Origin: Patescibacteria group bacterium
GTDB lineage: Bacteria > Patescibacteriota > Microgenomatia > UBA1400 > PJMF01
Reading direction: 5' to 3'
Assembly (NCBI GenBank): GCA_041747555.1
Contig: JBGTEY010000013.1
Location: 16,814 to 80,813 of the forward strand
DNA: 64,000 nt
Positions 7,009-62,945 of this stretch are shown here, in pieces. The position numbers and the translations under genes are program-made. How positions within the stretch are numbered: position 1 is the stretch's first letter; each line of letters begins with the position of its first letter. A model generated the notes under the pieces. It was not told the origin of the DNA, did not search any database, and saw only the letters and a list, made by a program, of their open reading frames with translations.

Positions 7009-7023
7009 TATTTAATATGTATT

Positions 7024-7845: not shown

Positions 7846-7858
7846 GGCTAGAGTTTTT

Positions 7859-8743: not shown

Positions 8744-8758
8744 GAAAAATCCCACTCT

Positions 8759-11263: not shown

Positions 11264-11334
11264 GAACCCTTCATTATAGCAATTATAGTGATGCCTGTCG
11301 CTCGAAATAATTAGGGGTGTTATACTAAATAGAT
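11264..11334. promoter_or_regulatory. Divergent promoter region between the GT fusion gene and sppA, with repeated ATTATAG elements
   Basis: 71-nt AT-rich spacer. TATAAT present on the minus strand (revcomp of ATTATA) twice, 9 nt apart. Confidence 0.25.
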
Positions 11335-26129: not shown

Positions 26130-27767
26130 TTACTGGTTCTGCTGCTCTATGATTGTAGTAGAGAGCTTGAGTAAATTTTCTCGAGTATTTTGATCTGGAT
26201 CATTGAGTACTACTTGCAACAATTCTGTAAGAATAGTGCCGAGTATCGGGCCAGGTTTGAGTGAAAATTCTTCCATCAAATCGGTTCCATTTATAGCTAA
26301 ATCAGTCACCTCCATTGGCTGATGGAGCTGCTCAATCATGCGTTGCTTCATTTCTTCGAGGCGCCAGCTTGTCTTACGGGCACCACTGCCCAAACGGTCA
26401 GCCTCTCTGACATCAAGAATATCATCCAAGTGTTCCAGCCCAACATTGCGCATAAAACGTCGAATAGACGCATCAGAGTTTTGCTCTTGGTAATGGAACA
26501 TATGAAACCGCACTAAGATAAAAAGACGATCGATGTCTTTCTTTGATAATTTCAGCCGTTGCCCAATTTTTTTGGCAATTCTGGCACCGATCACTTCGTG
26601 ATTGTAGAAGGTAGGCTGACCATTAATGAGCTTCATGGTTTGAGGTTTGGCAATATCATGAATCAGTGTTGCCAGCCGAACAATTGGATCAGTTGCAGGA
26701 GACGCTTCAAGTGCATCGAGACTATGCGTCCAGACGTCTGTGGTGTGATGACCACCTTGTTCGACGTTTTTTGCTTCTAGGAGCTCTGGCAAAACGGTTT
26801 GTAAGAGACCCGTTTCGTCAAGGAGCTCAATTGCTCGCTTTGGTTGCTTGCTCGATATCATTTTCAAAAACTCGGTGCTTATCCGTTCCCAACTAACAAA
26901 TGAGAGGAGATCTGCCTTTTTCTTAATAGCTTGCACCGTGTCTTGATCTATCGTTGCTTCAAGTTGAACAGCGAAACGAATTGCCCTGAGCAGGCGGAGT
27001 GCATCCTCGGTAAAACGGTCCTCGGCAATCCCGACTGTTTTCACAAGCTTGTTTTGTAAATCGGTATAACCATTAAAAGGATCAATAATGGTGTAATCGC
27101 TTGATGAGAGTGTACTATTCAGCTGAGTATCAAGGACTGTGCTGGTCTTTTTGGTTTCTAGTGCGGTCGAAAGTACATCAGAGGATAGTTGAATTGCCAT
27201 GGCGTTGATAGTGAAATCTCTACGTTCAAGGTCATCTTCGATATTTTCTCCCCAGCTCACTTGATCAGGCTTGCGGTGATTCTGATACGCTCCGTCAGAG
27301 CGAAAGGTAGTGATTTCAAAATTTTTAAGTTTAGAAAGAACTTTAGACGCTTTTTGGTCATCAGAAATCACTTCTTGCTGTAGCGATACATGAATTTTTG
27401 TTGCAGCTGAAATATCAATTATGCGATTTTCTCGATTTGTGTCATTTGGGAGGAGCCGTTCTGCCATCTCAAGGTCATCAAGTTTGTGCGGTAGTACTTT
27501 CCAAATTTCGGGTGGAGTTATCATCACTGTTCCATACTCATTTTCATAAAAACTTTCTGGAAACACTTTAAGAATTTGCTCAGGAGTAGCATTTGTAGTG
27601 AAGTCAAAATCAACAATGTGATCACGCCCCTGCAATAGATCACGCACCGCTCCACCCACAAGGTAGCACTCATACCCTGCAGCGTCCAGTTGTTTCATGA
27701 TATATACAACCTCAATTGGAATAGGAAGGCTGGTTGGAGGAGTAGTCGGTGAATCCATAGCCTTCAT
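26130..27767 (-). CDS. cca: CCA tRNA nucleotidyltransferase/poly(A) polymerase family protein with HD domain
   Basis: LVGGAVRDLLQGRDHIVDFDFTT is the head-domain motif. HHTTDVWTHSL and IHDIAKP are HD motifs. The start is trimmed to the ATG at 27767, because the track ORF runs into recJ. Confidence 0.7.
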   Translation of the reverse strand: MKAMDSPTTPPTSLPIPIEVVYIMKQLDAAGYECYLVGGAVRDLLQGRDHIVDFDFTTNATPEQILKVFPESFYENEYGTVMITPPEIWKVLPHKLDDLEMAERLLPNDTNRENRIIDISAATKIHVSLQQEVISDDQKASKVLSKLKNFEITTFRSDGAYQNHRKPDQVSWGENIEDDLERRDFTINAMAIQLSSDVLSTALETKKTSTVLDTQLNSTLSSSDYTIIDPFNGYTDLQNKLVKTVGIAEDRFTEDALRLLRAIRFAVQLEATIDQDTVQAIKKKADLLSFVSWERISTEFLKMISSKQPKRAIELLDETGLLQTVLPELLEAKNVEQGGHHTTDVWTHSLDALEASPATDPIVRLATLIHDIAKPQTMKLINGQPTFYNHEVIGARIAKKIGQRLKLSKKDIDRLFILVRFHMFHYQEQNSDASIRRFMRNVGLEHLDDILDVREADRLGSGARKTSWRLEEMKQRMIEQLHQPMEVTDLAINGTDLMEEFSLKPGPILGTILTELLQVVLNDPDQNTRENLLKLSTTIIEQQNQ

Positions 27768-27789
27768 TATACTGCATTTTGTTGCTACA

Positions 27790-29505
27790 ATGACTGCCAT
27801 GCGCTGGCAGATACAAACATCACACATTCCAAAAAATTTAGACGAGCTCAAAGAAATTTTACTTGCAAATCGAAACATTTCAGAGAGCGATGATTTTTTC
27901 TCGCCTCCTGATCCATTTACTATAACCGCCGAAGAAATTGGATGTAACAAGAAGCAACTCCAGAGCGCGCTGGACAGATTTTTTGTTGCGTTAGAAAAAA
28001 AGCAAGACATCGTGATTTTTGGGGATTATGACGCAGATGGAATTTGTGCTTCTGCAGTGTTATGGCATGTCCTCACTACTCTCAAGGCAACAGTGCGGCC
28101 GTTCATCCCACAGCGTGAGGTTCATGGATATGGCCTCAGCATTCCAGCACTAGAAGAAATAATCACCGAAAAAAAACCAGATCTTATCATCACTGTCGAC
28201 AACGGCATTGTGGCACACGAAGCAGTTGATTTTGCTCGTGAAAATAACGTCGATATCATCATCACCGACCACCATCAGCCAGAAGAAAAAGCAAAAAAAG
28301 AGCATTTACCAAAAGCCAACGCAGTTGTTCACACCACGGCACTCTGTGGAACAACCGTAGCCTGGATGTTTGCTCGTGAAATCATTGCCGCACATAAAAA
28401 AACAGGCCCCGCAGGTGTGCAAAAAAATGCTGAACGAATTCTAAAAGACACCCTCGATCTCTGCGGAATTGCCACCGTAGCCGACCAAGTGCCACTGCTC
28501 GGGTACAACAGGGGTTTCGCTACTGCAGGTATCGCAGCTTTACAAAAAAGCGCTCGCCCCGGCATTAGAGCCCTCTGTGCTCAAGCAAATATTGATCAAG
28601 CGGCAATCACCAGTGACTCAATCGGATTTGGAATTGCTCCCCGAATCAACGCCATGGGTAGGCTTGCACACGGACTTGACGCACTGCGATTGCTCTGTAC
28701 GGGAAACTTTACCAAAGCTACCGAATACGCGCAGGTGCTTGGCAACAAAAATGACCAGCGAAAAGACATGACTGCAGAAATGTTTGCCCACGCCATGCAA
28801 CAAGCTAAGTTGCAAGCGGAAGAGCATGTACTCATTGTTGGCTCTGCTGAATATCATGAAGGAATAATTGGATTGATAGCAGGGAGATTGAGCGAGCGGT
28901 TTTCTAAACCAGCAATCGTGGTAAGTTTTGGCAAAACAGTGGCTAAAGCATCGGCCCGGTCAGTCATTGGAGTGAATATTGTTGAGTTTATTCGAGAAGT
29001 ACAGGCTGATTTGCTTGCAGTTGGCGGGCATCCAATGGCTGCGGGGTTTGGGTTGGCGATGGATAATTTTGAGAAAGTTCAAAAAAAACTCTTTGAGCTT
29101 GGACGCGAAACAATTGGATCTGAGCTACTAACGCCTGGGCTAGAAATTGACTGTGAGATCCCGTGGCAGCTTGTCACAGAAAAACTAGTAACTTTGCAAG
29201 AAGCATTTGCACCATTTGGTTCAGCAAATCCGCGTCCCGTATTCATCCTCACGTGCGAAGTCCAATCCACCAAACGCATTGGCGCAGAAGGCAAGCATCT
29301 CAAATTATTTCTCGGTGAATCAGACGAAACTGGTATGACAAATTCTCTAGAAGCATTAGCCTGGAATAGAGGTGAGTGGGCAGAATCATTAGAGGAGGGA
29401 CAAAAGGTTCGGGTTGCGGTTAAAGTTGAGTTAAATACATGGCAAGGTCGGTCAAAAGTTCAGTTGGTTATCCGCGATATGCAGAATCCTGAAGAAGCAC
29501 CGTAA
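27790..29505 (+). CDS. recJ: Single-stranded-DNA-specific exonuclease RecJ (DHH family)
   Basis: IFGDYDADGICA, IITDHHQP and GGHPMAAG are DHH/DHHA1 motifs. Start set at MTAMRWQ. Confidence 0.85.
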   Translation: MTAMRWQIQTSHIPKNLDELKEILLANRNISESDDFFSPPDPFTITAEEIGCNKKQLQSALDRFFVALEKKQDIVIFGDYDADGICASAVLWHVLTTLKATVRPFIPQREVHGYGLSIPALEEIITEKKPDLIITVDNGIVAHEAVDFARENNVDIIITDHHQPEEKAKKEHLPKANAVVHTTALCGTTVAWMFAREIIAAHKKTGPAGVQKNAERILKDTLDLCGIATVADQVPLLGYNRGFATAGIAALQKSARPGIRALCAQANIDQAAITSDSIGFGIAPRINAMGRLAHGLDALRLLCTGNFTKATEYAQVLGNKNDQRKDMTAEMFAHAMQQAKLQAEEHVLIVGSAEYHEGIIGLIAGRLSERFSKPAIVVSFGKTVAKASARSVIGVNIVEFIREVQADLLAVGGHPMAAGFGLAMDNFEKVQKKLFELGRETIGSELLTPGLEIDCEIPWQLVTEKLVTLQEAFAPFGSANPRPVFILTCEVQSTKRIGAEGKHLKLFLGESDETGMTNSLEALAWNRGEWAESLEEGQKVRVAVKVELNTWQGRSKVQLVIRDMQNPEEAP

Positions 29506-29795: not shown

Positions 29796-29880
29796 CACGT
29801 GGAAATTCATTGAGTACAAAATGACGTCAAGTAATTATTTATAATGTTTCACGTGGAAAGTATATTTCCACGCGTGGAAA
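29791..29880 (+). promoter_or_regulatory. aspS promoter region with three copies of palindromic box TTTC(C)ACG(C)GTGGAAA, a -10 TATAAT at 29840-29845 and a TGACGTCA palindrome
   Basis: Boxes at 29791-29808, 29847-29860 and 29865-29880 (perfect 16-nt palindrome TTTCCACGCGTGGAAA). Boxes 2 and 3 lie between the -10 and the aspS start. Confidence 0.45.
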
Positions 29881-29897
29881 TAAATTTGAAAGGGAAC

Positions 29898-31346
29898 ATG
29901 TCATCAAAAAAGTCACAAGAAGAAACGCCAACAACACAGTTGGAGCGAACAGTAATGATTAGTACACCAGATGCAGTTGGAGCTCGCGTCCGACTCTGCG
30001 GCTGGGTTGAGACAAAGAGAGACCACGGCAAATTGACCTTTATCGATTTTCGCGACCGCACAGGTAGTGTGCAGTGCGTTGGATATCAAAAACTTGGCGA
30101 GGTCAGTGAGCAGTCGGTCTTAGAAATAATTGGTATGGTTAAGGCTCGACCAGAGCGAATGATCAACAAAGACATTCCAACTGGCAGCGTGGAAGTCGAT
30201 GTGGAATCCTACACAGTTCTTAACAAAAGTAAAGAACTTCCAATCCCTGTTGAGGGGCCTGGCTACGAAATTAAAGAAGAGTTGCGGCTTCAGTATCGCT
30301 ATCTTGACCTGAGAAGAAAACGTCTCAGAGACAATATCAAACTTCGTTCAGATTTGGCATTTCAAATGAGACAAAACCTTCACACAGAGGGCTTTACAGA
30401 AGTTGAGACACCGATGCTTACCAAATCCACCAAAGAAGGTTCTCGCGATTTTGTAGTTCCATCACGCCTTCAGCCAGGAAAATTTTATGCGCTTCCCCAG
30501 AGCCCACAACAGTACAAACAGCTGCTTATGACTGCGGGTGTAGAGCGCTACTTCCAGTTTGCACGCTGCATTCGTGATGAAGACTTGAGAGCAGATCGCG
30601 GGTTTGAACACACACAGGTTGACTTGGAAATGAGCTTTGTGACGCAACAGGAGGTAATGGACACCGTTGAGAAAATGGTAACGACTACCATGATTGATAT
30701 TGGTTGCACGCTCAAGGACACGCCATTCCCTGTATATCAGTACGATGATGCAATTAAGCAATTTGGACAAGACAAATTTGATATTCGATCAGAAGAAGAA
30801 AAAAAAGCTGGCGTTTTGGCATTTGCATGGGTTGTTGGATTTCCTTTCTTCAAGCAAGTCGACAAGACTGACATTGCAGAAGTACGAGACGGCAAGAGTG
30901 GATGGACATTTACACATAATCCATTTAGTTCACCCCTTCCTGAAAACGAATCTGATCATGTCGCAGCAAAGAACATAGAAAACATTGTGACCGCACAGTA
31001 CGACCTTGTATGCAACGGCTATGAAGTTGGCGGCGGAAGTATTAGAGCACATAAACCTGAGGTATTGCGCGCAACATTCAAAATAATGGGGTACTCAGAT
31101 GAAGAAATAGAAGCGAGTATCGGGCATATGCTTCAAGCATTTGAGGTCGGTACTCCACCGCATGGCGGAATTGCTCTAGGACTCGATCGTTTGGCAATGC
31201 TTGCGGCAGGCGAAACTTCACTTAGGGAAGTAATCCCGTTCCCGATGACCTCAAGTGGTAGAACTGCTGTCATGGATGCACCCAGTCCTCTAGCAAAAGA
31301 ACAGCTCGAAGAGCTCCAGTTGTCAGTGGTGGCTAAAGATGAGTAG
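29898..31346 (+). CDS. aspS: Aspartyl-tRNA synthetase, short form lacking the large GAD insertion
   Basis: OB-fold N-terminus. LPQSPQQYKQLLM (QSPQ motif), FRDEDLRADR, and GGGSIRAH motif 3. ATG at 29898 is preceded by AAAGGGAA. Confidence 0.85.
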   Translation: MSSKKSQEETPTTQLERTVMISTPDAVGARVRLCGWVETKRDHGKLTFIDFRDRTGSVQCVGYQKLGEVSEQSVLEIIGMVKARPERMINKDIPTGSVEVDVESYTVLNKSKELPIPVEGPGYEIKEELRLQYRYLDLRRKRLRDNIKLRSDLAFQMRQNLHTEGFTEVETPMLTKSTKEGSRDFVVPSRLQPGKFYALPQSPQQYKQLLMTAGVERYFQFARCIRDEDLRADRGFEHTQVDLEMSFVTQQEVMDTVEKMVTTTMIDIGCTLKDTPFPVYQYDDAIKQFGQDKFDIRSEEEKKAGVLAFAWVVGFPFFKQVDKTDIAEVRDGKSGWTFTHNPFSSPLPENESDHVAAKNIENIVTAQYDLVCNGYEVGGGSIRAHKPEVLRATFKIMGYSDEEIEASIGHMLQAFEVGTPPHGGIALGLDRLAMLAAGETSLREVIPFPMTSSGRTAVMDAPSPLAKEQLEELQLSVVAKDE

Positions 31347-32496: not shown

Positions 32497-33813
32497 ATGA
32501 ACATAACAATAATTGGAACTGGTTTTGTGGGCGTTGTATCGGCGGCAGTGTATTCTTCATTTGGCAATACAGTCGTCGGGCTGGACGTTGATGAAAAGAA
32601 AATTGAGAGCTTGAGGCAGTCTAAAGTTCCTTTTTTTGAACCACAACTTGAGGAATTACTTGCTGAACAACAAAGCGCTGGCACTTTATCGTTCACTACA
32701 GAGTATGAAACCGCCATCCCAAACGCTGACGTTATCATCATTGCAGTGGGAACACCTTCTGATGAAAATGGAAACGCAAATTTAACCTATGTGTTTTCTG
32801 CTGTCGAAAGTGCGGCAAAATACCTCAAGGAAAACGCAATTCTAGTGGTTAAATCAACCGTTCCACCTGGCACGCTTATAAAAGTAAAAGATCTTGCGGC
32901 TGCGCAAACAGATGTGACGATTCATTTGGCATCCCTACCAGAGTTTTTACGTGAGGGAAGCGCAGTCCACGACACTCTGCATCCAGACAGGGTTGTAATC
33001 GGTGCTGAAAATGACTTTGTTTTCGAAAAATTAGAAGAGCTTCACAAACCGCTCAAAGCCCCCGTACTCAAAATGTCCCCAGAATCTGCTCAAATGACAA
33101 AGTATGCTGCAAACGCTTACTTGGCGACTCGAATCGCGTTTATCAATCAAATTGCCGACATCTGTGAAACCAACGGTGCTGATATCCAGGAAGTGATAAC
33201 TGGAATTGGATATGATGCTCGCATCGGTGACCATTACTGGTATCCAGGACTTGGCTATGGCGGGTCTTGCTTTCCCAAGGACGTGCGTGAGATTGCACTC
33301 TATTCGAAATCGGTAGGCATGGATGACAATTTATTTGCCAAAATTCATCAACTCAATGTATTTAGAATTTCCGAACGACTCAATCGATATGAGAAATTAG
33401 TAGGTGGTTGGAATGGAAAAACAGTTGCAGTTCTTGGATTATCCTTTAAACCAAACACTGACGACTTGAGGGAAGCGCCAAGTCTTTCGGTCATACCAAG
33501 CTTACTCGAATCAGGTGCTGTTGTACGCGGATTTGATCCTGCAGCACAGTACGTGCTCCCAGAAAGTAATCCAAATGCAGAGCAGTATGATCAAGTTGCC
33601 ACGCTCAATGAGGCAGTTGCTGGCGCAGATGTTGTAATGGTTCTCATCGAGTGGCCGGAGATTTTAAAATTTGACTACAGCACTGCTCGAGATACAAAGA
33701 AGACACAATGGTTTATTGATACTAGAAACCAGATGAATCCTGAGAATTTGAAAAAACAAGGCTTTAACTATCTTGCTACTGGCCGTCCTGAAACAGAAGA
33801 AGGAGCTCAATGA
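32497..33813 (+). CDS. ugd: UDP-glucose 6-dehydrogenase (nucleotide-sugar dehydrogenase family)
   Basis: N-terminal IIGTGFVGVVSAAV Rossmann fold and GGSCFPKD catalytic Cys motif. Confidence 0.8.
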   Translation: MNITIIGTGFVGVVSAAVYSSFGNTVVGLDVDEKKIESLRQSKVPFFEPQLEELLAEQQSAGTLSFTTEYETAIPNADVIIIAVGTPSDENGNANLTYVFSAVESAAKYLKENAILVVKSTVPPGTLIKVKDLAAAQTDVTIHLASLPEFLREGSAVHDTLHPDRVVIGAENDFVFEKLEELHKPLKAPVLKMSPESAQMTKYAANAYLATRIAFINQIADICETNGADIQEVITGIGYDARIGDHYWYPGLGYGGSCFPKDVREIALYSKSVGMDDNLFAKIHQLNVFRISERLNRYEKLVGGWNGKTVAVLGLSFKPNTDDLREAPSLSVIPSLLESGAVVRGFDPAAQYVLPESNPNAEQYDQVATLNEAVAGADVVMVLIEWPEILKFDYSTARDTKKTQWFIDTRNQMNPENLKKQGFNYLATGRPETEEGAQ

Positions 33814-34775
33814 GCGAGGACTCTAAACCAATTTTGATTACTGGTGGAACCGGCTTTGTCGGTGCACATCTAGTACAGTTTCTGAAAGACGCTGGCGAAC
33901 AAAACATCCACGTCACTACATTTGGTGGAGTTCCCGAGTCTTTGAGAGAAACACTCGAAGGTGTGCAAGTCCACGCGGTGGATTTGACAGACCAAACTGC
34001 CACAGCGCAACTATTCGAAACAATTGCTCCTAAACAAATATATCATTTGGCAGCATTTTCATCGGTTGCGGATAGTTTGGGTAATGTCCAGAAAACCCTT
34101 GAAAATAATATTAATCTTCAAGTCTCTGTACTCGAGGCAATTCGTGAAAAAGCACCTGATGCTCGAGTACTGATTGTTGGGTCTGCAGAAGAGTATGGTT
34201 TGAGTAAGCCTGGCGAAGTTCCAATATCCGAAGACCATCCACTCAGGCCAGCTAATCCATACGCTGTTTCTAAAGTTACGCAAGATTTGTTGGCGTACTC
34301 CTATCAAGTCAGTTATGGTCTCTCAATCCTTCGAGTGCGTCCATTTAATCATACTGGTGCTGGTCAACACCCGAACTTTGCAATTCCAAGTTGGGCGCAA
34401 CAAATTGTTGCAATAGAGCGCGGTGCTGAGCCTGTGCTTCGTGTTGGTAATTTAGAAGCGATTCGCGATATTTCACACGTACAAGATGTAGTTAACGCAT
34501 ATTCAATAATCATGGAAAAAGGCACTGTGGGCGAAGTTTATAATGTCGGTACGGGCACTGGGGTAAGTATGAAGCAGGTAGTGGATGCGCTTATAGCAGC
34601 ATCTATCAAAGAAATAGCAGTCGTCGTTGATCAAGAACGCTTACGCCCACTTGATATTCCAGAGATGATAGCCAATAATGAAAAGGTACGAGGACTCGGT
34701 TGGGAACCAACTCACTCTCTAGCAGATATCGTGAACGAAGTATTAGAGTGGTATAGAACGCAGGAGGACGAATGA
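33810..34775 (+). CDS. rmd: GDP-4-keto-6-deoxy-D-mannose reductase-like SDR (Rmd-like; GDP-D-rhamnose forming)
   Basis: [31 protein letters not shown] and VYNVGTG align with Pseudomonas Rmd blocks. Coupled to gmd. Confidence 0.6.
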
Positions 34776-35749
34776 AAAAAGCATTTATAACTGGCATTAC
34801 TGGCCAAGATGGATCGTATTTAGCTGAGTTTTTACTCGAGGAGGGGTACAAGGTCTATGGATTGACCAGAAGAACCAGCACTCAAAATTTTGCTCGAATC
34901 AATCATATTATTCACGATCCCAATCTCGAATTAATATCTGGCGATTTAATTGATCAACATTCCTTGACCTACGCTATCAAAGATATTCAACCTGATGAAG
35001 TTTACAATTTAGCTGCGCAGTCATTTGTACAAGCATCCTGGGAACAACCAGTTTTAACAGGAGAATTTACGGCAATTGGCGTCACGCGCGTACTCGAGGC
35101 AATACGCCTGGCATGCCCATCGGCAAAATTTTATCAAGCAAGCTCAAGTGAAATGTTTGGCAGAGTTCAGGAAGTTCCTCAGAATGAGGATACTCCGTTT
35201 TATCCTCGATCACCCTATGGCGTTGCCAAGGTGTATGGTCACTGGATCACCGTCAATTATCGTGAATCATTCGATATGTTTGCAGTATCAGGGATTTTAT
35301 TTAATCACGAATCACCCCGAAGAGGTCTAGAATTCGTTACCAGAAAAATTGCAAATGCGGTTGCCCGCATTAAACTTGGTAAGCAAGAATTCGTTGAACT
35401 CGGGAATTTAGAGGCAAAACGCGATTGGGGATATGCCAAAGATTATGTGAGAGCGATGTGGCTGATGCTACAACAAGAAGAGCCGCAGGATTATGTCATT
35501 GCAACGGGCGAAACACACTCTGTTAAAGAATTTCTACAATTAGCGTGTAAATCAGCTGGACTCGAGGATTGGGAAGCCGTGTATAAACACAACAAGCAGT
35601 TTGACCGACCTGCAGAGGTGGATTTATTGATAGGCGATCCTTCACAAGCCCAAGCACAATTGGGTTGGGAGCCAACTATTTCATTTGAAGAGCTGGTTGA
35701 TCTCATGGTGCAGGCAGAACTGGAACTCGAATCAAAAACAGAACTATAA
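34772..35749 (+). CDS. gmd: GDP-mannose 4,6-dehydratase
   Basis: [30 protein letters not shown] is a near-invariant Gmd N-terminus. Confidence 0.9.
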
Positions 35750-35752
35750 AGT

Positions 35753-36910
35753 ATGAAACACGCCGTTGTCATCATTCCAACTTATAACGAGCGAGAGAAC
35801 ATTCAGGTAGTTATTCCTGCCCTTCATGACGTTTTTTCAGGCATTTCCAGCTGGAAGATGTCTATATTGGTCGTAGATGATACTTCACCTGATAAAACCT
35901 ATGAGGTGGTGGAAGAACTTTCCAAGAAATACCCCTTCGTTCACCTACTAAAAAATAAGCAAAAGTCAGGTCTTGGTGGCGCGTATCTCAAAGGTATGGC
36001 AGAAGCCTTCGGAGCTCTTGATGCAGACGTTATCTTCGAGTTTGACGCCGATCTCTCACACGACCCAACCAAGATCCCTCAATTTTTAGCAGCTGTTGAT
36101 GCTGGGGCTGATATGGTGCTTGGATCTCGTTATATTCCTGGTGGTAGTATCCCAAAAAATTGGGGGCTCCATCGCAAATTCTTTAGTGTGGTAGGTAATA
36201 TAGTTATCGCACTTGTTTTGACCAACTTCTCAATTAGAGATTGGACTACAGGATTCCGCGCGATCACTAAAAAAGTCTATGACGCAGTGCATCCATCACT
36301 CCATACGGAACAATTTTCTGGGTATACGTTTCAAATTGGTTTTCTCCACGCCGCAGTCAAAAATAAATTTAATATAACAGAGGTGCCATTTCATTTTGCA
36401 GATCGAACCATTGGGCATTCTAAGTTGGGCCCTGAATACATCAAAAATACACTCCTCTACATTATTAGAGTCAGATTGCAGGATGTGTACGCGAGTAGAG
36501 TATTTAAGTTTGCAGTGGTGGGTGGTGTTGGTGCGCTTATTCAACTTTCAAGCTTGCAGCTGTGGAGACTCATCGTGCCATTCCAACTTGCATTTTTTCT
36601 TTCCATAGAAACAGCTATTATTTCTAACTTTATTCTCAATAATACATGGACATTTTCTGATCATCAGTTAGCACTAGCTGATTTTCCTAAGAAGTTTTTG
36701 CAATTTAACTTTACCTCTGGAGGGTCAATCATTATTCAACAATTGGTGGCTATCTTTGGCGAGTTGTTTGTGGGTCTCATCACCTTATTTACCATTCCAT
36801 TTCTCAATTTTCCGTTTGATACTGGCACGCTCTATGCAATTATTGGGATTTTACTTGGCATGACCTGGAATTTCTTTGCTTACACCAAATTTATTTGGAA
36901 GACTGCCTAG
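35753..36910 (+). CDS. Polyprenol-phosphate sugar synthase (GtrB/Dpm1-like GT2) fused to a C-terminal GtrA-like 4-TM domain
   Basis: VVIIPTYNERENI...VVDDTSPDKT GT2 motifs, then 4 C-terminal TM helices typical of GtrA-family proteins. Confidence 0.75.
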   Translation: MKHAVVIIPTYNERENIQVVIPALHDVFSGISSWKMSILVVDDTSPDKTYEVVEELSKKYPFVHLLKNKQKSGLGGAYLKGMAEAFGALDADVIFEFDADLSHDPTKIPQFLAAVDAGADMVLGSRYIPGGSIPKNWGLHRKFFSVVGNIVIALVLTNFSIRDWTTGFRAITKKVYDAVHPSLHTEQFSGYTFQIGFLHAAVKNKFNITEVPFHFADRTIGHSKLGPEYIKNTLLYIIRVRLQDVYASRVFKFAVVGGVGALIQLSSLQLWRLIVPFQLAFFLSIETAIISNFILNNTWTFSDHQLALADFPKKFLQFNFTSGGSIIIQQLVAIFGELFVGLITLFTIPFLNFPFDTGTLYAIIGILLGMTWNFFAYTKFIWKTA

Positions 36911-36914
36911 TATC

Positions 36915-38498
36915 ATGAGAACGTCCAGCACACTGCCCGAGCCACTTAAAAAAATAGTTGCGGCTTCCACAAAGGTGTATACCAGGGTCTATTCCAGAAT
37001 ATCTGGGTTTGGATGGGAAGAGAAGGTTTTAATACTTATTTTTTTTGCTGCCTGTTATTTACGCCTCTATAATATTCCCGATACCGTGCAATTTTTAGGT
37101 GATCAGGGCAGGGATGCGTTGATTGTTTCTCGGATATTTACCGAAGGCGACTTAGCGTTTATTGGGCCGGTTACCAGCGTTGGAAATGTATACCTTGGGC
37201 CGGCATATTACTATTTTATGCTGCCATTTTTGTGGCTGAGTTATCCAAGTCCACTTGGTCCTGTATATGCTGTTGCTGCACTTAGTATCTTTACGACTGC
37301 TTGCATGTATCTGTTTGGCAAGCACATGTTTGGAAAAAGAACTGCGCTGATTGCAACCGCGTTGTTCGCATTTTCAAGTACAGTTGTCACGTATGCGCGA
37401 TTTAGCTGGAATCCAAATCCTGCACCATTTGTTTCCTTGTTTGTTTTGTATGCAACGTGGAGATCGTTTAATGATGCTCGGTGGTTGATTGGCGTTATTG
37501 CGGGGTTAAGTCTTTTGGTCCAGCTTCACTATTTAACGTTGCTGCTGTTTCCTGCAATCGGGCTCATTTGGTTGTACCAATTGTGGCAGCTCCATCAAGC
37601 TACCAAAAAAAATGTGATGGAGGTATTAAAGCCAACAGCGATCGGCATAATTATTTTTGCAGCATCGCTAGTACCATTACTTTTATTTGACATGAAACAT
37701 GACTGGCTCAACTCGAGAGCATTTTATGAAATGTTTTTTGGAAACTCAGAACTCAACGTTGATGATGCCTCACTGGGGAGTAAATTGCTGAGTGCACTTA
37801 CAGAAACTCATGGTCGAAGCATGCACATTCTATTCGAAATAACGATCGGAAAGTTTCGAATGCTCAATTCCGCATTACTTATCGGTTTTTTGGGAGGAAT
37901 GTGGTACTTAGTGCGATCAGATCATAAGCACCAGTTGGGTCTGCGCATACTGCTCATTATTTTCATAACCAGCGTCATCGGAATTAGTTTTTATCAACAC
38001 TCAGTTTTTGATCACTACATTGCATATTTGTTTCCAGTAACCATGTATTTGCTTGCTATCGCGATTAATGAACTTCTTACTATTAAATATATAGGACCGG
38101 TTGCTGCATTTGCTTTTGCATTTTACTTTGTTGGATTCAATCTACGAACGTATCCACTTGATTCGCTTGGGTGGACGATGTCTGATATGCAAAAAACTAC
38201 TATGACAATTTTAGAACGTATTGATGACAATGAGAAATATAACCTTGTGCTCTTATCACCAACTGGCGATATTGAGGCACTGAGCTATCGATACTTTTTA
38301 CACGCAAGTGACAAACCACCGTTGCGAACAGAAGAACGACTTGAAGCAGAAACCCTTTTTATAATCGATGAAGATCGAACGCTGCAAAAATCAACAGACT
38401 CACCTGTGTATGAAATAGTTGTGTTTCCAAATAAAGAGCCTGATGAGATCTATGAAATTCAGGGTGGTCCAAGGATAACAGTACTGAGAAGAGAATAG
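36915..38498 (+). CDS. Putative GT-C fold membrane glycosyltransferase (GtrC-like partner)
   Basis: About 12 TM helices plus a roughly 120-aa C-terminal soluble domain. Directly follows the GtrA/GtrB fusion gene. Confidence 0.45.
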   Translation: MRTSSTLPEPLKKIVAASTKVYTRVYSRISGFGWEEKVLILIFFAACYLRLYNIPDTVQFLGDQGRDALIVSRIFTEGDLAFIGPVTSVGNVYLGPAYYYFMLPFLWLSYPSPLGPVYAVAALSIFTTACMYLFGKHMFGKRTALIATALFAFSSTVVTYARFSWNPNPAPFVSLFVLYATWRSFNDARWLIGVIAGLSLLVQLHYLTLLLFPAIGLIWLYQLWQLHQATKKNVMEVLKPTAIGIIIFAASLVPLLLFDMKHDWLNSRAFYEMFFGNSELNVDDASLGSKLLSALTETHGRSMHILFEITIGKFRMLNSALLIGFLGGMWYLVRSDHKHQLGLRILLIIFITSVIGISFYQHSVFDHYIAYLFPVTMYLLAIAINELLTIKYIGPVAAFAFAFYFVGFNLRTYPLDSLGWTMSDMQKTTMTILERIDDNEKYNLVLLSPTGDIEALSYRYFLHASDKPPLRTEERLEAETLFIIDEDRTLQKSTDSPVYEIVVFPNKEPDEIYEIQGGPRITVLRRE

Positions 38499-38531
38499 AG
38501 ACAACCTATCGAGCTTGAGGTAATATAGTGT

Positions 38532-39317
38532 ATGATAGTCACCATGAAACCTTTTGTATCTGTCGTTATTCCATCATTTAATGAAATGAATAATATCAAG
38601 AAACGAGTTCTTGATGACGTGTACCTATTCATGAGCTCGCAATCTTATGCTTTTGAAATTATCCTCAGTGACGATGGTTCAACAGATGGCACAGTAGACG
38701 CACTCATTGCATTCGCCTCAGATAAAAAAGAAGTGCGGGTACTAGAAAATGCTCATGCTGGAAAAGCACCAACGGTGAAAAGCGGCATGCTCGAAGCCAA
38801 GGGAGAATGGAGACTCTACACCGACTTTGATCAATCAACGCCCATTTCCGAGCTCACGAACCTTCTTGAAACTGCAAACAAAGGTCATGACATCGTCATC
38901 GGCTCAAGAGAGATGGTTGGAGCTAAGCGAGAGAAAGAACCTTGGTATCGGCGATTGATGGGGAGAGGATTTAATATTTTGGTGCAAATAATTGCTGTGC
39001 CTGGCATTCTTGATACACAGTGCGGATTTAAACTTTTTTCTGATACAGCTACAGATCAGCTGTTTAATCAACTTATCGTATATGGTTCTCAGAAGGAGCG
39101 TGCAGACGCCTATACCGGCGCATTTGATGTTGAGTTACTTTTCTTGGCATATAAGCAGGGGTACTCAATTAGAGAAGTGCCCATACAATGGAATCATGCA
39201 GAGACCAATAGAGTCAGTCCAATCAAAGACTCGATTAGAATGTTGTGGGACATTATCAAAATTAAAGCACAGTATGTCTTCGGAAATTACTCATTAGAGC
39301 AGTCATTGAAAGCATGA
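38532..39317 (+). CDS. Family 2 glycosyltransferase (Dpm1/GtrB-like, soluble)
   Basis: VSVVIPSFNEMNNI...ILSDDGSTDGT GT2 motifs. Confidence 0.75.
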   Translation: MIVTMKPFVSVVIPSFNEMNNIKKRVLDDVYLFMSSQSYAFEIILSDDGSTDGTVDALIAFASDKKEVRVLENAHAGKAPTVKSGMLEAKGEWRLYTDFDQSTPISELTNLLETANKGHDIVIGSREMVGAKREKEPWYRRLMGRGFNILVQIIAVPGILDTQCGFKLFSDTATDQLFNQLIVYGSQKERADAYTGAFDVELLFLAYKQGYSIREVPIQWNHAETNRVSPIKDSIRMLWDIIKIKAQYVFGNYSLEQSLKA

Positions 39318-40615
39318 AGTTTTTTACTTCACTCCCCAAACCAATTCCGTTACTATTGGTTGTTTATTCAGTATTGTTCTGGGTTTTTTCGATCTTTTCA
39401 TATGCGCTTACCGATCCTAACTTGGTATTGATTAGCTGGGCGCCATATCAAACTTTCCAGAATTGGATGTGGAGCTCAATTGGGAGCAATCAACAATACT
39501 TATCATCTTTGTATGGGATTATTGTGGCTGGAATGGCGCTTCTCTATGTGTTGATTATTCTTCACCTATTCAAAGCTAAGAAAGAATTTTCAAAGTTGCC
39601 GCTTTCATACTTGGCACTACTTTGGTTGGTTCTTTTTGTGGCCCCACTCATGGTATCAATGAATGCGTTGTCTCATGATGTTTTTAACTACATCTTTAAT
39701 GCCAAAATGGCAGTTGTATACGGCGCAAATCCTCATGTGAGTGTTGCGTTGGACTTTCCTCAAGATTTATGGACTCGATTTATGCACAACACGCATACAG
39801 CGGCACCCTATGGATACGGATGGACGGCACTTTCACTTATTCCATTTGGCTTGGGTTTTGGTGTGTTTAGCATAACTTGGGTAATGTTTAGGCTGTTTAT
39901 GATTGGTGGGATTTTTGTGCTTTACTTTGGATTGCAAAGACTTTCAAGGGCTTTGCGGGATGTTACTGTGCCATTGTCACACTTGGCAGTTCTATTTTTA
40001 AATCCTCTTTTTTTGATCGAAACTATTAGTTCTATGCATAATGATGTTTGGATGATGGCGCTGGCGGTATGGGCAATTGCATTGATTCTACCCCTCAAAA
40101 TAAGTATGAAGCAGGTCTTGGCCTCAGCACTTTTACTGATCATGTCGATCTCAATTAAATATGTGACAGTTGTGCTTGTTCCCATCTGGTTATTTTTTGC
40201 GGCCAGCACTATTCTTGAATCAAAAGTTGCAACATTGATGCAGAATAAACTTAGAATTCCTGCCCGAATAGTTGAGATGTTGTTGCAAAAAGTAGTGTCT
40301 CTAGCAACTAATTTTCTACCCTTACTCATCTCAGTGCTATTTATTCTCCCACTCTTCACCGCAAGATCACAGCAGTTTCACCCTTGGTATTTGATATGGG
40401 CACTAGTCTGGATCCCAGAGATTAAAAGCGCGTGGTGGAGGTGGTCGCTTATCGCACTCTCAATAAGTAGTCTCTTTCGCTATCTCCCGTGGTTGTTTCA
40501 TGGAGGATACTCAAGTGAAATTTTGCTACAACAAAAAAGCATTACGTGGTTACCATTTTTCTTGATTTTGGTTCTGCAAGTGATGTGGTGGCATGCAAAG
40601 AGAGAGAAGGCATGA
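39314..40615 (+). CDS. Polytopic membrane protein, possible GT-C (GT87/DUF2029-like) mannosyltransferase
   Basis: More than 10 TM helices. Loop SHDVFNYIFNAK...TAAPYGYGWT is weakly reminiscent of the GT87 family. Coupled to neighbouring GT genes. Confidence 0.35.
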   Translation: MKFFTSLPKPIPLLLVVYSVLFWVFSIFSYALTDPNLVLISWAPYQTFQNWMWSSIGSNQQYLSSLYGIIVAGMALLYVLIILHLFKAKKEFSKLPLSYLALLWLVLFVAPLMVSMNALSHDVFNYIFNAKMAVVYGANPHVSVALDFPQDLWTRFMHNTHTAAPYGYGWTALSLIPFGLGFGVFSITWVMFRLFMIGGIFVLYFGLQRLSRALRDVTVPLSHLAVLFLNPLFLIETISSMHNDVWMMALAVWAIALILPLKISMKQVLASALLLIMSISIKYVTVVLVPIWLFFAASTILESKVATLMQNKLRIPARIVEMLLQKVVSLATNFLPLLISVLFILPLFTARSQQFHPWYLIWALVWIPEIKSAWWRWSLIALSISSLFRYLPWLFHGGYSSEILLQQKSITWLPFFLILVLQVMWWHAKREKA

Positions 40616-42186
40616 AAACTAAATTAGCGATTATGATCTTGGTTCTTGCATATCTATGCACTAGATTGATTGGTCTTGGCGCATTTCCTGTCTTTGCTGA
40701 CGAGGCAATTTACATTCGCTGGACGCAACTGATGATCGATTCGTTAAGTGAGTACGCGTTTTTTCCTCTTAATGATGGCAAGACCCCGCTCTTTATGTGG
40801 ATGATGATTCCATTTCAGTATTTGTTTCAAGATCAATTGGTTGCAGGCAGGTTCGTTTCAGTCGTTATTGGTGGTTTGCAGGTTATTGTTACCGGGCTAA
40901 TACTGAGTGGACTTGGGGTTGGGAAAAGAGCGGCATATATTGCAAGTGGATTAGTTGTACTGTTGCCATTTTGGGTGCTTCATCACCGGTTGGCACTGAT
41001 AGATGGAACGTTGACATTCTTCTTGACACTATCTGTGTATTTTCTACTTAAAGCAGTTACTCTTGATCAATCGCGCAGCATCTGGAAGTGGCGAATATTG
41101 TCTGGATTCAGTCTAGGAGCAGCGCTACTTACAAAGATTCCTGCGGTGTTGGCAGTTCCTTCACTTGGAGTTCTGGCGCTGTTTCTCATGAAAAATGAGC
41201 AAAAAAAGTTCAGACTGAGTCGATTTGAATTTATGCACCGTAGTGTTACGTTTGCGAGTATCTGCACAGTAGCGCTCATCGTCTTTTTATCACTCAAAAT
41301 TCACCCTGCATTTGGTCAGTTATTCAGAAGGGGCGGAGATTTTTTACACCCATTTTCTGATGTATTCTTCCAAGGAATGTGGAAAGACACGATCGGTAGT
41401 ATTCCAAATTATATACGCTATTTTCTCCAGTATCTGACACCAGCAGTATCTGCAGTGATGCTAATTGGCTTATTCCTAAAGAAACATCAGCAGCGAACGC
41501 ATCTCTTTTTTTGGTGTGGAGTCCTATTTATTTTGCCAATCGCGCTTCTGGGAAAGGTCGTGTATCCTCGTTATCTCTTTCCCGCCACTCTCTTTTTTAC
41601 TGTTGCTGCCGCACTGAGTTTTGATGCACTTATAGATCTCACGAGTCGCCTCAAAGGGGTAAGGCAGATTGCAGTTGGGGCAATTCTGGCGCTTTTGATC
41701 GCGAATACAGTCACTCAGTCAATGGCTTTTGCTATTCCGCTAATGAGTGATTACAACATGACGCCCTTTGTCTCATCTGATAGAGAGCAGTATTTGACAG
41801 AATGGTCATCTGGGCATGGAGTGCATGAAGTTGTTCAACGTATTACCCAAGAATCTCAAGACAAAACGATTGCAGTTGCTACAGAAGGGCATTTTGGAAC
41901 GCTTCCTGACGGGATATTGCTCTATTTGCATCGCAGGCCCGTTGACTCACTGTATATTGAGGGAATTGGTCAGCCCGTACACTCTATTCCAGAGAAATTC
42001 TTGGAGCGAGCAAGAGGATTTGATGAAATATTTCTAGTCGTAAATAGTCATCGAATGATGATTCCACTTGATCAATCTTTATTGCGTGTTGAGTATTGCA
42101 GGCCTTTTGACGCGCCGTGTTTGCAGGTCTGGGATATAACTGACATTGAGACAATTCAACCGCAAACAGACGCTGTAAGTCAATAA
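40612..42186 (+). CDS. ArnT/PMT-like GT-C membrane glycosyltransferase
   Basis: FADEAIYIRW...FFPLNDGKTPLFMWMM matches the ArnT/PMT first-loop DE motif and KPPL-like segment. 11+ TM helices and a C-terminal soluble domain. Confidence 0.55.
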   Translation: MKTKLAIMILVLAYLCTRLIGLGAFPVFADEAIYIRWTQLMIDSLSEYAFFPLNDGKTPLFMWMMIPFQYLFQDQLVAGRFVSVVIGGLQVIVTGLILSGLGVGKRAAYIASGLVVLLPFWVLHHRLALIDGTLTFFLTLSVYFLLKAVTLDQSRSIWKWRILSGFSLGAALLTKIPAVLAVPSLGVLALFLMKNEQKKFRLSRFEFMHRSVTFASICTVALIVFLSLKIHPAFGQLFRRGGDFLHPFSDVFFQGMWKDTIGSIPNYIRYFLQYLTPAVSAVMLIGLFLKKHQQRTHLFFWCGVLFILPIALLGKVVYPRYLFPATLFFTVAAALSFDALIDLTSRLKGVRQIAVGAILALLIANTVTQSMAFAIPLMSDYNMTPFVSSDREQYLTEWSSGHGVHEVVQRITQESQDKTIAVATEGHFGTLPDGILLYLHRRPVDSLYIEGIGQPVHSIPEKFLERARGFDEIFLVVNSHRMMIPLDQSLLRVEYCRPFDAPCLQVWDITDIETIQPQTDAVSQ

Positions 42187-42256
42187 GTACATCATACTTA
42201 TTGCGACTCACAAACATAGCGTATATGATCGCGATCTTAGCTGCCCCATACCATTT

Positions 42257-42988
42257 ATGCGGCAGTTTATTTCACAACTCTCTAGTGCATTCAAAGGAGA
42301 TTCCTTTACCAAAAAGAATCTACGAGTGCTAGTTGAAAAAACTGATACAAACTCTAATGACCACGCACTTTTTTCTAACCCAAAAACCCTCGCACATGCT
42401 TGTGCAACGCCACTTACCGTTATTAAATGCTGTGTTCAACAAAGTTTGGAAAAATCAAATCTGTCTGAGCAACAAATGTTGCTTAACTCATCATTGGTAG
42501 CGATTGATCGCATGAAAAACATCTTGAATAGCGTGTTGGACAATCAGACTCCAAGAAGTGGACCAGTAGATCTCAATGTGCTTTTAACTGAGGCTATTAA
42601 GTTAGTGCAAAATTCAAATCAAAGTCAAATATCTTACATTACTGCGAGAACTATAGATGCACAAATACTGGGCAGTTCTACTTTAGTTAGTGAGATGCTA
42701 ATTTGCATACTCAAAAATGCAATCGAAGCCTCACGCAACGAGAAAATCATCGTGCATCTCTCAGCTCGAAAGGCTTGGGTTAGGATTGACATTACAGATT
42801 TCGGCCATGGTATGAGCGAGCGGCAGCTAAAACTAGCCTCAAAGACGTCTTTCAGTACAAAATCGACTGGCAATGGAATTGGGCTACCATTTGTACGCGA
42901 AACGATTCATCAATATGGGGGCACACTCTCAATTATGAGCAGAGTAGGTGTAGGAACCTGGATTTCAATCAGATTACCAAAGGCCTAG
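42257..42988 (+). CDS. Histidine kinase, cytoplasmic, no TM or sensor domain
   Basis: H-box LAHACATPLTVIK. HATPase_c N/G boxes (NAIEAS, DFGHGM, GNGIGL, GGTLSI). Confidence 0.7.
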   Translation: MRQFISQLSSAFKGDSFTKKNLRVLVEKTDTNSNDHALFSNPKTLAHACATPLTVIKCCVQQSLEKSNLSEQQMLLNSSLVAIDRMKNILNSVLDNQTPRSGPVDLNVLLTEAIKLVQNSNQSQISYITARTIDAQILGSSTLVSEMLICILKNAIEASRNEKIIVHLSARKAWVRIDITDFGHGMSERQLKLASKTSFSTKSTGNGIGLPFVRETIHQYGGTLSIMSRVGVGTWISIRLPKA

Positions 42989-43000
42989 CGAGCAATAATA

Positions 43001-43669
43001 TCACTCGCATCGGTATCCAAATCCACGAACAGTTTGCAAATACCTTGAGTAGTCACCGAGCGATATCCTCAGCCTTCGAATATAGACATCAATAGAGGCG
43101 TAACTCGGTGCATCATCGGCTGCGTGCCACACAGCATCAATTATCTTTTCTCGTGAAACGGTAGATGGGCGTGATCGTAGTAGGCAGGTTAGAATTGCAG
43201 CTTCTTTTCTGCGAAGCTGCTTCTCACCTTGTGGGGTAATTAACACACCACTCCCTGCAATAAATCTGGCTGCACCTATTTCATAGTCTTCTAGCGGTGG
43301 GTGCTTTACAACCTGAAGCAATTTATTAGATTTAATGAGAAGCTCTGGTAGTGAAAAAGGCTTGGGCACATAATCGTCTGCACCGTCTTCAAGTCCGCGA
43401 ATTCGTTCATCGAGGTGATGTTGTCTAGAAAGTACAATAATTTTCGTTTGAAAATGGCAATCACGTAAATACCGAGCGACTTCAAGCCCGTCGCCATCGG
43501 GTAGCATTCTATCCAAAAGCACCAAGTCAAACTGTTTGGACTCAAGCTGCGCATAGGCGTCAAAAATAGTATGAGACGTGTGACAACTATGTGACTTCTT
43601 CTCAATCTGTGCGCGGAGTAGATTAGCGAGTTGCCAATCGTCTTCAACAATCAGGACATTTTTTTTCAT
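43001..43669 (-). CDS. OmpR-family response regulator
   Basis: REC domain (LIVEDD...LVLLDRMLPDGDG...K) plus a C-terminal winged-helix (RRLRISL...VRGFGYRCE). Confidence 0.85.
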   Translation of the reverse strand: MKKNVLIVEDDWQLANLLRAQIEKKSHSCHTSHTIFDAYAQLESKQFDLVLLDRMLPDGDGLEVARYLRDCHFQTKIIVLSRQHHLDERIRGLEDGADDYVPKPFSLPELLIKSNKLLQVVKHPPLEDYEIGAARFIAGSGVLITPQGEKQLRRKEAAILTCLLRSRPSTVSREKIIDAVWHAADDAPSYASIDVYIRRLRISLGDYSRYLQTVRGFGYRCE

Positions 43670-59704: not shown

Positions 59705-59728
59705 TTTATAGTATCACGAATACCAATG

Positions 59729-62943: not shown

Positions 62944-62945
62944 CC

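Follow-up and report, generated by a model that had tools for sequence, protein, structure and literature searches.

A conserved Patescibacteria operon combining predicted GDP-D-rhamnose genes, a homologue of the archaeal type III DPMS and three GT-C-like proteins

The window analysed here, a 64,000-nucleotide stretch of contig JBGTEY010000013.1 from a Patescibacteria group bacterium (assembly GCA_041747555.1), carries eight consecutive genes on the + strand (ugd-rmd-gmd-DPMS-GTC1-GT2b-MptAB-PMT; 32497-42186), which are predicted to encode three nucleotide-sugar enzymes, a DPMS-like polyprenyl-phosphate glycosyltransferase, a second glycosyltransferase of the GT2 type (GT2b), and three proteins related to membrane glycosyltransferases of the GT-C type (GT-Cs). 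On balance, we favour the view that this operon constitutes a self-contained pathway for the glycosylation of an envelope polymer at the outer face of the membrane, with two lipid-linked sugars and three GT-Cs. The functional unit consists of the genes from ugd to PMT together with an adjoining two-component system, which extends it to position 43669. All of its parts come from known enzyme families and the mechanism is as expected for such parts; no description of the operon in Patescibacteria was found in the literature searched. Much of bacterial diversity belongs to the Patescibacteria, whose members for the most part live attached to other cells. In the Microgenomates, a lineage of ultra-small Patescibacteria, the operon is a conserved and compact candidate for producing one of the major envelope glycans.

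Gene content and organization of the operon

Five co-directional, translationally coupled open reading frames (ORFs) were confirmed on the + strand within 35753-42186, at the positions given in a preliminary description of this DNA. The genes listed there stand, but the boundaries do not, as these ORFs are the last five of the eight genes and the unit spans 32497-43669. The intergenic junctions from ugd through the PMT-like gene are -4, -4, +3, +4, +33, -4, and -4 bases, rmd overlapping both ugd and gmd by 4 bases, and these short distances and overlapping stops and starts indicate that the eight genes form one translationally coupled operon. Scans for promoters and terminators yielded no more sites than were found in shuffled sequence, and thus the ends of the operon are not defined by such scans. 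The closest relatives are labelled Microgenomates, Pacebacteria/Paceibacterota, or Woesebacteria.

The genes ugd, rmd, and gmd had been described as lying upstream of the glycosyltransferase genes, rmd and gmd being named as the GDP-D-rhamnose genes, and this is borne out by the TIGR and PDB scores. The product of ugd (32497-33813, +) is a predicted UDP-glucose 6-dehydrogenase, a source of UDP-glucuronate (TIGR03026, 424 bits), and carries all three UDPG_MGDP_dh Pfam domains. Its identification as a GDP-mannose dehydrogenase was ruled out, as its PDB matches are headed by UDP-glucose dehydrogenases (341 bits, versus 214 bits for GDP-mannose dehydrogenase). The next gene, rmd (33810-34775, +), encodes a putative GDP-4-keto-6-deoxy-D-mannose reductase (GDP-D-rhamnose synthase) that aligns along its whole sequence with the characterized Rmd of Aneurinibacillus thermoaerophilus (PDB 2PK3; 223 bits, residues 7-316, 40.5% identity), followed by the next PDB match at 125 bits, Pseudomonas aeruginosa Rmd (6X3B) at 124 bits, UDP-xylose synthase (UXS) at 69 bits, and the GDP-fucose synthase Fcl at 68 bits. 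Since the best NCBIfam match of this short-chain dehydrogenase/reductase was a dTDP-glucose dehydratase, a UXS (UDP-glucuronate decarboxylase) was suspected, and this candidate was ruled out by the difference between 223 and 69 bits. The same comparison separates the protein from the Fcl/WcaG group, the distinction on which the preliminary description had made its assignment depend, and it also places the protein nearer to Rmd than to GalE or RmlB. The sequence comparisons thus identify the reductase encoded between ugd and gmd as a true Rmd-type enzyme; formation of the 4-epimeric product, 6-deoxy-D-talose instead of D-rhamnose, may be an alternative for an Rmd-like reductase. The third gene, gmd (34772-35749, +), encodes a predicted GDP-mannose 4,6-dehydratase (TIGR01472, 440 bits; cut-off, 415).

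The fourth gene (35753-36910, +) encodes a type-III-DPMS-like protein, a putative polyprenyl-phosphate glycosyltransferase in which a GT2 domain (Pfam Glycos_transf_2, 94 bits) is joined to a four-helix GtrA-like membrane domain (GtrA_DPMS_TM, PF04138; 52 bits, residues 252-382). It aligns with PfDPMS of Pyrococcus furiosus (5MLZ) at 169.5 bits over residues 5-345, with 34% identity over 322 positions, compared with 48 bits for ArnC and 26 bits for the GtrB protein sll0501. A GT2 with a C-terminal GtrA-like domain of four transmembrane (TM) helices had been noticed previously, and both Pfam matches agree with it. Of the "GtrA/GtrB fusion" proposed at the same time, the fused GtrA-like domain holds, but the GtrB part does not, the protein being much closer to DPMS. 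The residues of PfDPMS that bind guanine, metal, mannose, and the acceptor phosphate are known from crystal structures (PMC5526996), and these functional residues were mapped onto an alignment of 120 orthologues of the DPMS-like protein. E12, D39, L69, D89, D91, H94, R117, R131, S135, F177, R202, and K208 (PfDPMS numbering) are invariant in the 120 orthologues, so that this family retains both the DAD motif for metal and donor and the triad for the acceptor phosphate (Arg117, Arg131, and Ser135). Three positions differ: Q93 is replaced by S in 117 of the 120 orthologues, and all of them have Q at K178, the residue of PfDPMS in contact with O4/O6, and at N248 of the polar pocket in the membrane.

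The DPMS-like protein is a full-length homologue of the archaeal type III DPMS with all catalytic residues kept, and the archaeal enzyme is the closest structural relative of this key synthase. Both are composed of a GT2 domain, interface helices, and a four-helix GtrA-like domain, and share the functional residues except for Q93S and K178Q. The protein studied here differs from PfDPMS in that it is bacterial, has only 34% identity and Q in place of N248, presumably uses bacterial polyprenyl phosphate as a carrier, and is encoded in an operon with GDP-D-rhamnose genes. Gandini et al. (2026) define strict type III enzymes as archaeal, with at least about 40% identity and Asn248, and confine them to hyperthermophilic archaea (PMC12992685). 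The DPMS-like protein falls outside this strict definition on account of its bacterial origin, its 34% identity, and the invariant Q. For type III DPMS, the GtrA-like domain has been proposed to act as a flippase on the basis of an inverted Dol-P-Man in the crystal (PMC12992685), and the window has no small ORF for a stand-alone GtrA-like protein. An architecture described so far only in hyperthermophilic archaea, for which a built-in flippase is suggested, is shown here to have a widespread bacterial counterpart.

In the phage collection searched, the homologues of the DPMS-like protein have <37% identity. The sole full-length viral homologues were found in Sulfolobales viruses (Sulfolobales Virus YNP2, KP282680.1:20850-21954; 32% identity, 95% of the query), which fits the archaeal affinity of the DPMS-like architecture.

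The GT2b gene (38532-39317, +) encodes a protein of 261 residues without a hydrophobic segment (Pfam GT2, 76 bits), in agreement with the second soluble GtrB-like GT2 noted earlier. This DPM1/GtrB/ArnC-like GT2 is presumed to be a second polyprenyl-phosphate sugar synthase. In the PDB it comes closest to PfDPMS (60 bits) and ArnC (47 bits), its NCBIfam matches to PgfS, ArnC, and the (haloarchaeal) dolichyl-phosphate hexose transferase are all under the cut-off, and it shares 27% identity with the catalytic domain of the DPMS-like protein. Conserved motifs, as judged from 80 orthologues, are DDGS, DFDQS, GSR, and FDVE.

The three remaining products are polytopic, and it had been left as a check whether these ORFs would match permease families. 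They match GT-C glycosyltransferases and no permease families. GTC1 (36915-38498, +) is a predicted ArnT-like GT-C that belongs to the PMT_2 superfamily and ends in an extracytoplasmic alpha/beta domain, identified by the Pfam matches of its orthologues and by its fold. The start codon was assigned to ATG at 36915 and not to TTG at 36876, and an identical 527-amino-acid product is on record. GTC1 itself scores 22.1 bits against PMT_2 (PF13231), under the cut-off of 26.1, but most orthologues pass this model, and they are named GT39/ArnT-like. A sequence search of the PDB returned nothing useful. In the AlphaFold model (pLDDT 91.5), the top Foldseek match is ArnT (5F15; E = 2e-7, probability 1.00, TM score 0.58), and the further matches are all GT-Cs, namely oligosaccharyltransferases, ALG9/12, Pmt4, and AftA/B. 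The first-loop residues D63 and D67 (FLGDQGRD) are invariant. The modelled structure indicates that GTC1 has an ArnT-type GT-C fold, consistent with the GT-C protein that had been placed after the GT2-GtrA protein.

The second of these proteins (39314-40615, +) had been described simply as polytopic. This is correct, as it has about 10-13 hydrophobic helices, and can be refined to a third candidate GT-C, of the MptA/MptB family. Precomputed annotation gives PF26314 (MptA_B_family) for the identical database protein as well as for all 120 homologues listed; the Pfam copy searched here, in which the PF26314 model is absent, gave no match. Against TIGR03459 (MptA), the protein scores 32 bits (E = 6e-8), a weak but specific match far under the cut-off of 439, and sequence comparison thus places it as a member of the family and not as an MptA equivalog. 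PDB searches with the sequence and with its profile returned nothing useful. For the structural model (pLDDT 93.8), Foldseek gave no significant match (best E, 0.26), and the matches with probability >0.5 are all GT-Cs (AglB, PimE, STT3, EmbB, ALG3, and GPI-MT-I). D122 (SHDVFNY), D151, E236, and H242-N243-D244 are invariant. Since hhalign detected no relationship between its profile and that of GTC1, the MptA/B-like protein is probably a GT-C of a class unlike the other two.

The last gene of the operon (40612-42186, +) encodes a predicted GT-C whose N-terminal module is PMT/ArnT-like and whose C-terminal domain is soluble (PMT, 72 bits; PMT_2, 51 bits; 38 bits to Pmt4 in the PDB). Its start is most likely the ATG at 40612, which forms an ATGA overlap with the preceding stop. 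The FADEAIYIRW loop, by which an ArnT/PMT-like GT-C had been recognized at this place, directly follows the first TM helix (D30-E31, at about 40699-40704 of the window), and at least 95% of 72 orthologues retain D30-E31, D55, D243, and R320-Y321. The C-terminal soluble domain is as in ArnT-type enzymes.

The PMT domain raises the possibility of a different role for the operon, i.e. protein O-glycosylation, in which the PMT-domain GT-C, perhaps together with the ArnT-like one, would transfer mannose or D-rhamnose to Ser/Thr residues of secreted, S-layer, or pilus proteins, as the Ppm1/Pmt system does in Actinobacteria. The Pfam PMT score, the DE motif in the first outer loop, the resemblance of R320-Y321 to the RxxY motif of Mycobacterium tuberculosis PMT (PMC12331936), and a DPMS-like donor synthase within the same operon are in line with it. 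However, the core of true protein O-mannosyltransferases consists of PF02366 plus PMT_4TMC (PMC12331936), and two scans for PMT_4TMC (PF16192) gave no match at E <= 0.01 in the PMT-like protein, whose orthologues list PMT/PMT_2 only; protein O-mannosylation is thus not implied by the PMT domain. In addition, the C-terminal soluble domain resembles those of ArnT-type enzymes acting on lipids or glycans, three GT-Cs and two synthases exceed the need of protein O-mannosylation, and the genes are associated with LCP and wzx genes (see below). We regard this role as improbable.

Immediately downstream, a cytoplasmic histidine kinase without a hydrophobic or membrane segment (42257-42988, +; Pfam HisKA and HATPase_c) and an OmpR-type response regulator (43001-43669, -; Response_reg and Trans_reg_C) are encoded. 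Among the related loci described in the following section, the histidine kinase gene follows the operon in 28-32 and the response regulator gene lies beside it in 56. The combination of ugd, an ArnC-like GT2 (47-52 bits), and an ArnT-fold GT-C adjoining an OmpR-type two-component system is reminiscent of an Arn-like modification of envelope charge, in which a Ugd-derived sugar would be loaded onto undecaprenyl phosphate by ArnC-like GT2b and handed to a membrane lipid by the ArnT-like GT-C under two-component control, conferring resistance to cationic peptides. No ArnA, ArnB, ArnD, or ArnE/F homologues were found among the window ORFs scanned, and the absence of ArnA, ArnB, and ArnD from the window argues that this is not an Arn pathway. 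Such a modification also assigns no role to gmd-rmd, the DPMS-like enzyme, and two GT-Cs, and the Patescibacteria envelope is of the Gram-positive type, without lipid A. It therefore appears very unlikely.

Conservation and genomic context

With the MptA/B-like alignment as query and each species represented by one genome, 80 loci were obtained, all from Patescibacteria; five metagenome-derived loci were added, and each ORF in these loci was assigned to its best match among the window proteins. Of 83 loci, 50 carry the full order ugd-rmd-gmd-DPMS-GTC1-GT2b-MptAB-PMT, and in most of the remainder it is interrupted by the end of a contig. This recurrence indicates that the gene arrangement is far from chance. 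The gmd gene lies directly 5' of the DPMS-like gene in every informative locus (67 of 67), GT2b and MptAB are adjacent in 81 loci, and ugd was found in 63. Gmd is the most conserved of the operon proteins, with a median identity of 81% to the window protein; the corresponding value is 62% for the DPMS-like protein and, at the lower end, 43% for GTC1 and MptAB. With identities falling to 43%, the gene order has outlived a long divergence.

To the left of the operon, two alternative sets of neighbours were observed: aspS-dac, or rmlB-(rmlC)-rmlD and then trmD in the opposite orientation. The rmlB-(C)-D genes are directly 5' of ugd in about 25-30 related loci (approximately one-third). In three loci (L033, L055, and L067), GTC1-GT2b-MptAB-PMT occurs alone, flanked by an LCP ligase gene on one side and by PTPS_related-wzx-GT2 genes on the other; the order in L055 is LCP-GTC1-GT2b-MptAB-PMT-PTPSrel-wzx-GT2x4, and those in L033 and L067 are similar. 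These exceptions show that the operon is built of two modules, ugd-rmd-gmd-DPMS and GTC1-GT2b-MptAB-PMT, of which the second repeatedly occurs together with genes for wall-polysaccharide assembly and L-rhamnose synthesis. In three other loci (L026, L029, and L062), the operon adjoins PTPS_related, wzx, and LCP genes.

Some database records need a comment. Dozens of the third-party metagenome-assembled genome records among L006-L085 (e.g. L006, L007, and L010) are titled 'uncultured Pseudomonadales bacterium' despite their Patescibacteria neighbours, and other operon-bearing records, titled Limisphaerales, Methylococcaceae, or Vitreimonas, look mislabelled as well.

Two analogies had been offered in the preliminary description, one to the actinobacterial Ppm1/Pmt system, which stands, and one to serotype-converting Gtr systems, which does not. 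The latter would make the operon a mobile, phage-derived cassette altering a surface antigen through a GtrA flippase, a GtrB synthase, and a GtrC transferase. The three-component logic is the same, a GtrA-family membrane domain is present, and Patescibacteria phages with gmd/rmd auxiliary genes have been reported (PMC12911398). However, the operon is flanked by housekeeping genes (aspS, dac, recJ, dnaX, and gltX), and such genes are found throughout the window (frr, rseP, secDF, cca, recJ, aspS, dnaX, gltX, and trmD); the G+C content of the window is even (0.40-0.47) apart from one dip, and the gene order and neighbours recur in 80 species. The distance of the synthase from GtrB, the lack of a separate small GtrA gene, and the low identity of the phage homologues described above also contradict a Gtr cassette. 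A phage origin is refuted for practical purposes, and the genes represent a vertically inherited chromosomal operon.

Proposed pathway, donor sugars and acceptor

From the family identities, conserved catalytic residues, GT-C fold of GTC1, operon structure, conservation, and genomic associations observed here, we infer the donor sugars, the flipping step, the acceptor, and the regulation as follows. In the cytoplasm, Gmd and Rmd would convert GDP-mannose to GDP-D-rhamnose, and Ugd would make UDP-glucuronate. The DPMS-like enzyme would load a GDP-borne sugar, either mannose or D-rhamnose, onto polyprenyl phosphate, and GT2b would load a second sugar, probably a UDP-borne hexose or hexuronate, onto the same type of carrier. 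A flipping step would follow for the lipid-linked monosaccharides, perhaps through the four-helix GtrA-like domain of the synthase itself, and the ArnT-like, MptA/B-like, and PMT-like GT-Cs would then pass the sugars to an acceptor outside. Synthesis on polyprenyl phosphate inside and GT-C transfer outside had been suggested in the preliminary description, and the same is implied by the homologies of the DPMS-like protein, GT2b, and the GT-Cs. In view of the genomic links to LCP and wzx and to the rml genes, the acceptor is most likely an L-rhamnose-containing polysaccharide that Wzx would flip after its assembly on polyprenyl diphosphate and that the LCP ligase would attach to peptidoglycan; the alternatives are a membrane-anchored lipoglycan or proteins. 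The product may be a glycan that contains both D- and L-rhamnose, and control of the operon probably lies with the adjoining two-component system.

Several points weigh against this pathway. All functions are assigned by homology. The 80 loci come from one bacterial class and are hence not independent, so that the conserved order may in part be inherited synteny rather than functional coupling, and in the three loci in which the GT-C half stands alone there is no ugd-rmd-gmd-DPMS half nearby. The GT-C fold of the MptA/B-like protein derives mainly from profile annotation. GT2b has no equivalent of S135 and no membrane anchor, and could instead work as an ordinary GT2 in the cytoplasm, with a lipid-linked oligosaccharide as its substrate. 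The pathway assigns no consumer to UDP-glucuronate, Q93S and K178Q in the DPMS-like protein do not point to a 6-deoxy sugar, and in the window the LCP/Wzx cluster is 14 kb from the operon.

With regard to the sugar handled by the DPMS-like enzyme, the linkage to gmd-rmd in every informative genome argues for D-rhamnose, and the fully retained mannose-synthase site argues for mannose or is neutral. Loss of O6 contacts at the donor site was considered as a sign of D-rhamnose and rejected, as only Q93S and K178Q differ. Human DPM1 has the same residues at these positions, and the donor-site comparison is therefore no evidence for D-rhamnose. No precedent for a lipid-phosphate rhamnose donor was found in the literature searched. 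The dolichyl-phosphate-rhamnose of Haloferax was ruled out as such a precedent, since the rhamnose there is added to a DolP-linked trisaccharide. The more specific proposal that the DPMS-like enzyme makes polyprenyl-phosphate-D-rhamnose and flips it by its own GtrA-like domain, and that the GT-Cs build a D-rhamnose-containing polymer outside, is only tentative, and we consider it rather doubtful. If it were true, a bacterial self-flipping type III synthase would feed an extracytoplasmic D-rhamnan pathway, which would be surprising. In either case, the operon is a natural case for asking whether a DPMS-type enzyme loads a 6-deoxy sugar, and a glycan containing both D- and L-rhamnose, if present, would offer a marker or handle for uncultured cells, through lectins, antibodies, or phage receptors.

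The actinobacterial Ppm1/MptA-MptB/Pmt network is the closest functional analogue. Both systems combine a homologue of polyprenyl-phosphate mannose synthase with one GT-C of the MptA/B family and another with a PMT domain, and the lipid-linked sugar is made inside and used outside. The Patescibacteria genes differ in being gathered, along with ugd and gmd-rmd, into a single operon; in a synthase of the archaeal type III kind with a fused GtrA-like domain, unlike Ppm1/Ppm2; in a PMT-like protein without PMT_4TMC and an MptA/B-like protein scoring 32 bits against the MptA cut-off of 439; and in the lack of PIM-type primer genes in the window.

This analogy can be taken literally. The DPMS-like enzyme would then make polyprenyl-phosphate mannose only, the MptA/B-like protein would polymerize a membrane-anchored lipoglycan of the lipomannan type as a substitute for lipoteichoic acid, and cytoplasmic GT2s encoded elsewhere (at 6-11 kb or 63 kb) would consume GDP-D-rhamnose and UDP-glucuronate. 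All DPMS signature residues are retained, further GT2 genes are present in the window (7024-11350 and 62946-63848), and two reports describe the characterized MptA/B and PMT members as using polyprenyl-phosphate mannose (PMC2440535, PMC5882110). This leaves unexplained, however, why genes that drain GDP-mannose, gmd-rmd, lie beside the synthase gene in every informative locus and why the GT-C half is located inside LCP/Wzx clusters in several genomes, and no PimA/PimB-type GT4 or other primer enzyme was found among the window ORFs scanned. We judge a lipomannan-type product to be unlikely, though somewhat less so than protein O-glycosylation. If the operon makes only polyprenyl-phosphate mannose for a mannan, it would be an ordinary, neatly organized relative of the actinobacterial system.

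The pathway that we favour, which leads to a wall-linked polymer, resembles other known systems to a lesser extent. In the Gram-positive three-component systems for wall polymers (GacI/J/L, SccN/M, CsbB/YfhO, and GtlA/B), a GT2 synthase, a flippase, and a GT-C act in succession. The operon shares this logic with them and with phage GtrABC, and shares the association with rhamnose synthesis, Wzx, and LCP. It differs in having two synthases and three GT-Cs of three families in one operon, a fused GtrA element, a synthase of the GDP-sugar type as judged by homology, and a core rather than strain-variable location.

Gmd and Rmd are also shared with the pathways for the common polysaccharide antigen of P. 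aeruginosa and for the S-layer glycan of Aneurinibacillus, whose Rmd is the nearest relative of the enzyme described here (223 bits). In contrast to those pathways, the window contains no WbpX/Y/Z-type GT4 rhamnosyltransferases and no Wzm/Wzt exporter, and the operon transferases are limited to polyprenyl-phosphate-type GT2s and GT-Cs. As no GT4 glycosyltransferase or ABC exporter was found among the window ORFs scanned with Pfam, a cytoplasmic D-rhamnan route of the Pseudomonas type is unlikely.

Other glycan genes and minor features of the window

The window encodes predicted enzymes for all steps of dTDP-L-rhamnose synthesis: a short RmlA, glucose-1-phosphate thymidylyltransferase (17062-17784, +; TIGR01207, 320 bits), which lacks the C-terminal 50 residues of the model; RmlD (56025-56942, -; TIGR01214, 169 bits); a divergent RmlC-like cupin (56935-57477, -; Pfam dTDP_sugar_isom, 49 bits); and RmlB (57474-58517, -; TIGR01181, 470 bits). 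The co-occurrence of the operon with a dTDP-L-rhamnose pathway, which had been pointed out earlier, is thus real, and it is conserved beside ugd in related genomes. The RmlC-like cupin scores 38 bits against TIGR01221 (cut-off, 156) and was recognized by the best-match screen in 6 related loci only, whereas rmlB and rmlD are common. Directly 5' of the short rmlA gene, an 86-amino-acid ORF (16760-17020, +) with three hydrophobic segments and no family match is present.

A cluster identified by Pfam at 58562-63848 contains genes for an LCP ligase (-), a PTPS_related polytopic protein (+), a Wzx flippase (+), and a GT2 (+; 62946-63848), and is probably a wall-polysaccharide assembly cluster served by the operon. 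The PTPS_related protein (59684-61450, +; 38 bits), encoded divergently from the LCP gene, has approximately 10 hydrophobic segments and is a fourth large polytopic protein. Its gene is followed by wzx and the GT2 gene, and it is located directly 3' of the PMT-like gene in several relatives.

A second glycan cluster (4347-11350, -) encodes a 526-amino-acid polytopic protein with about 8 hydrophobic segments and no Pfam match, a polysaccharide pyruvyl transferase (6043-7008), two GT2s (7024-7884 and 7859-8755), and an 863-amino-acid protein (8759-11350) with two GT2 domains and membrane segments. This cluster is possibly a cytoplasmic assembly line that consumes GDP-D-rhamnose or dTDP-L-rhamnose.

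Two observations concern the housekeeping genes upstream of the operon. The 500-amino-acid aspartyl-tRNA synthetase (29844-31346, +) matches the 590-amino-acid bacterial model in two stretches and seems to lack the usual insertion domain; its orthologues in related loci have 470 amino acids. The longest ORFs of a CCA-adding enzyme/poly(A) polymerase-like gene (26130-28010, -) and recJ (27697-29505, +) overlap by approximately 300 bases on opposite strands, and the true start of recJ is probably 3' of the listed position 27697.

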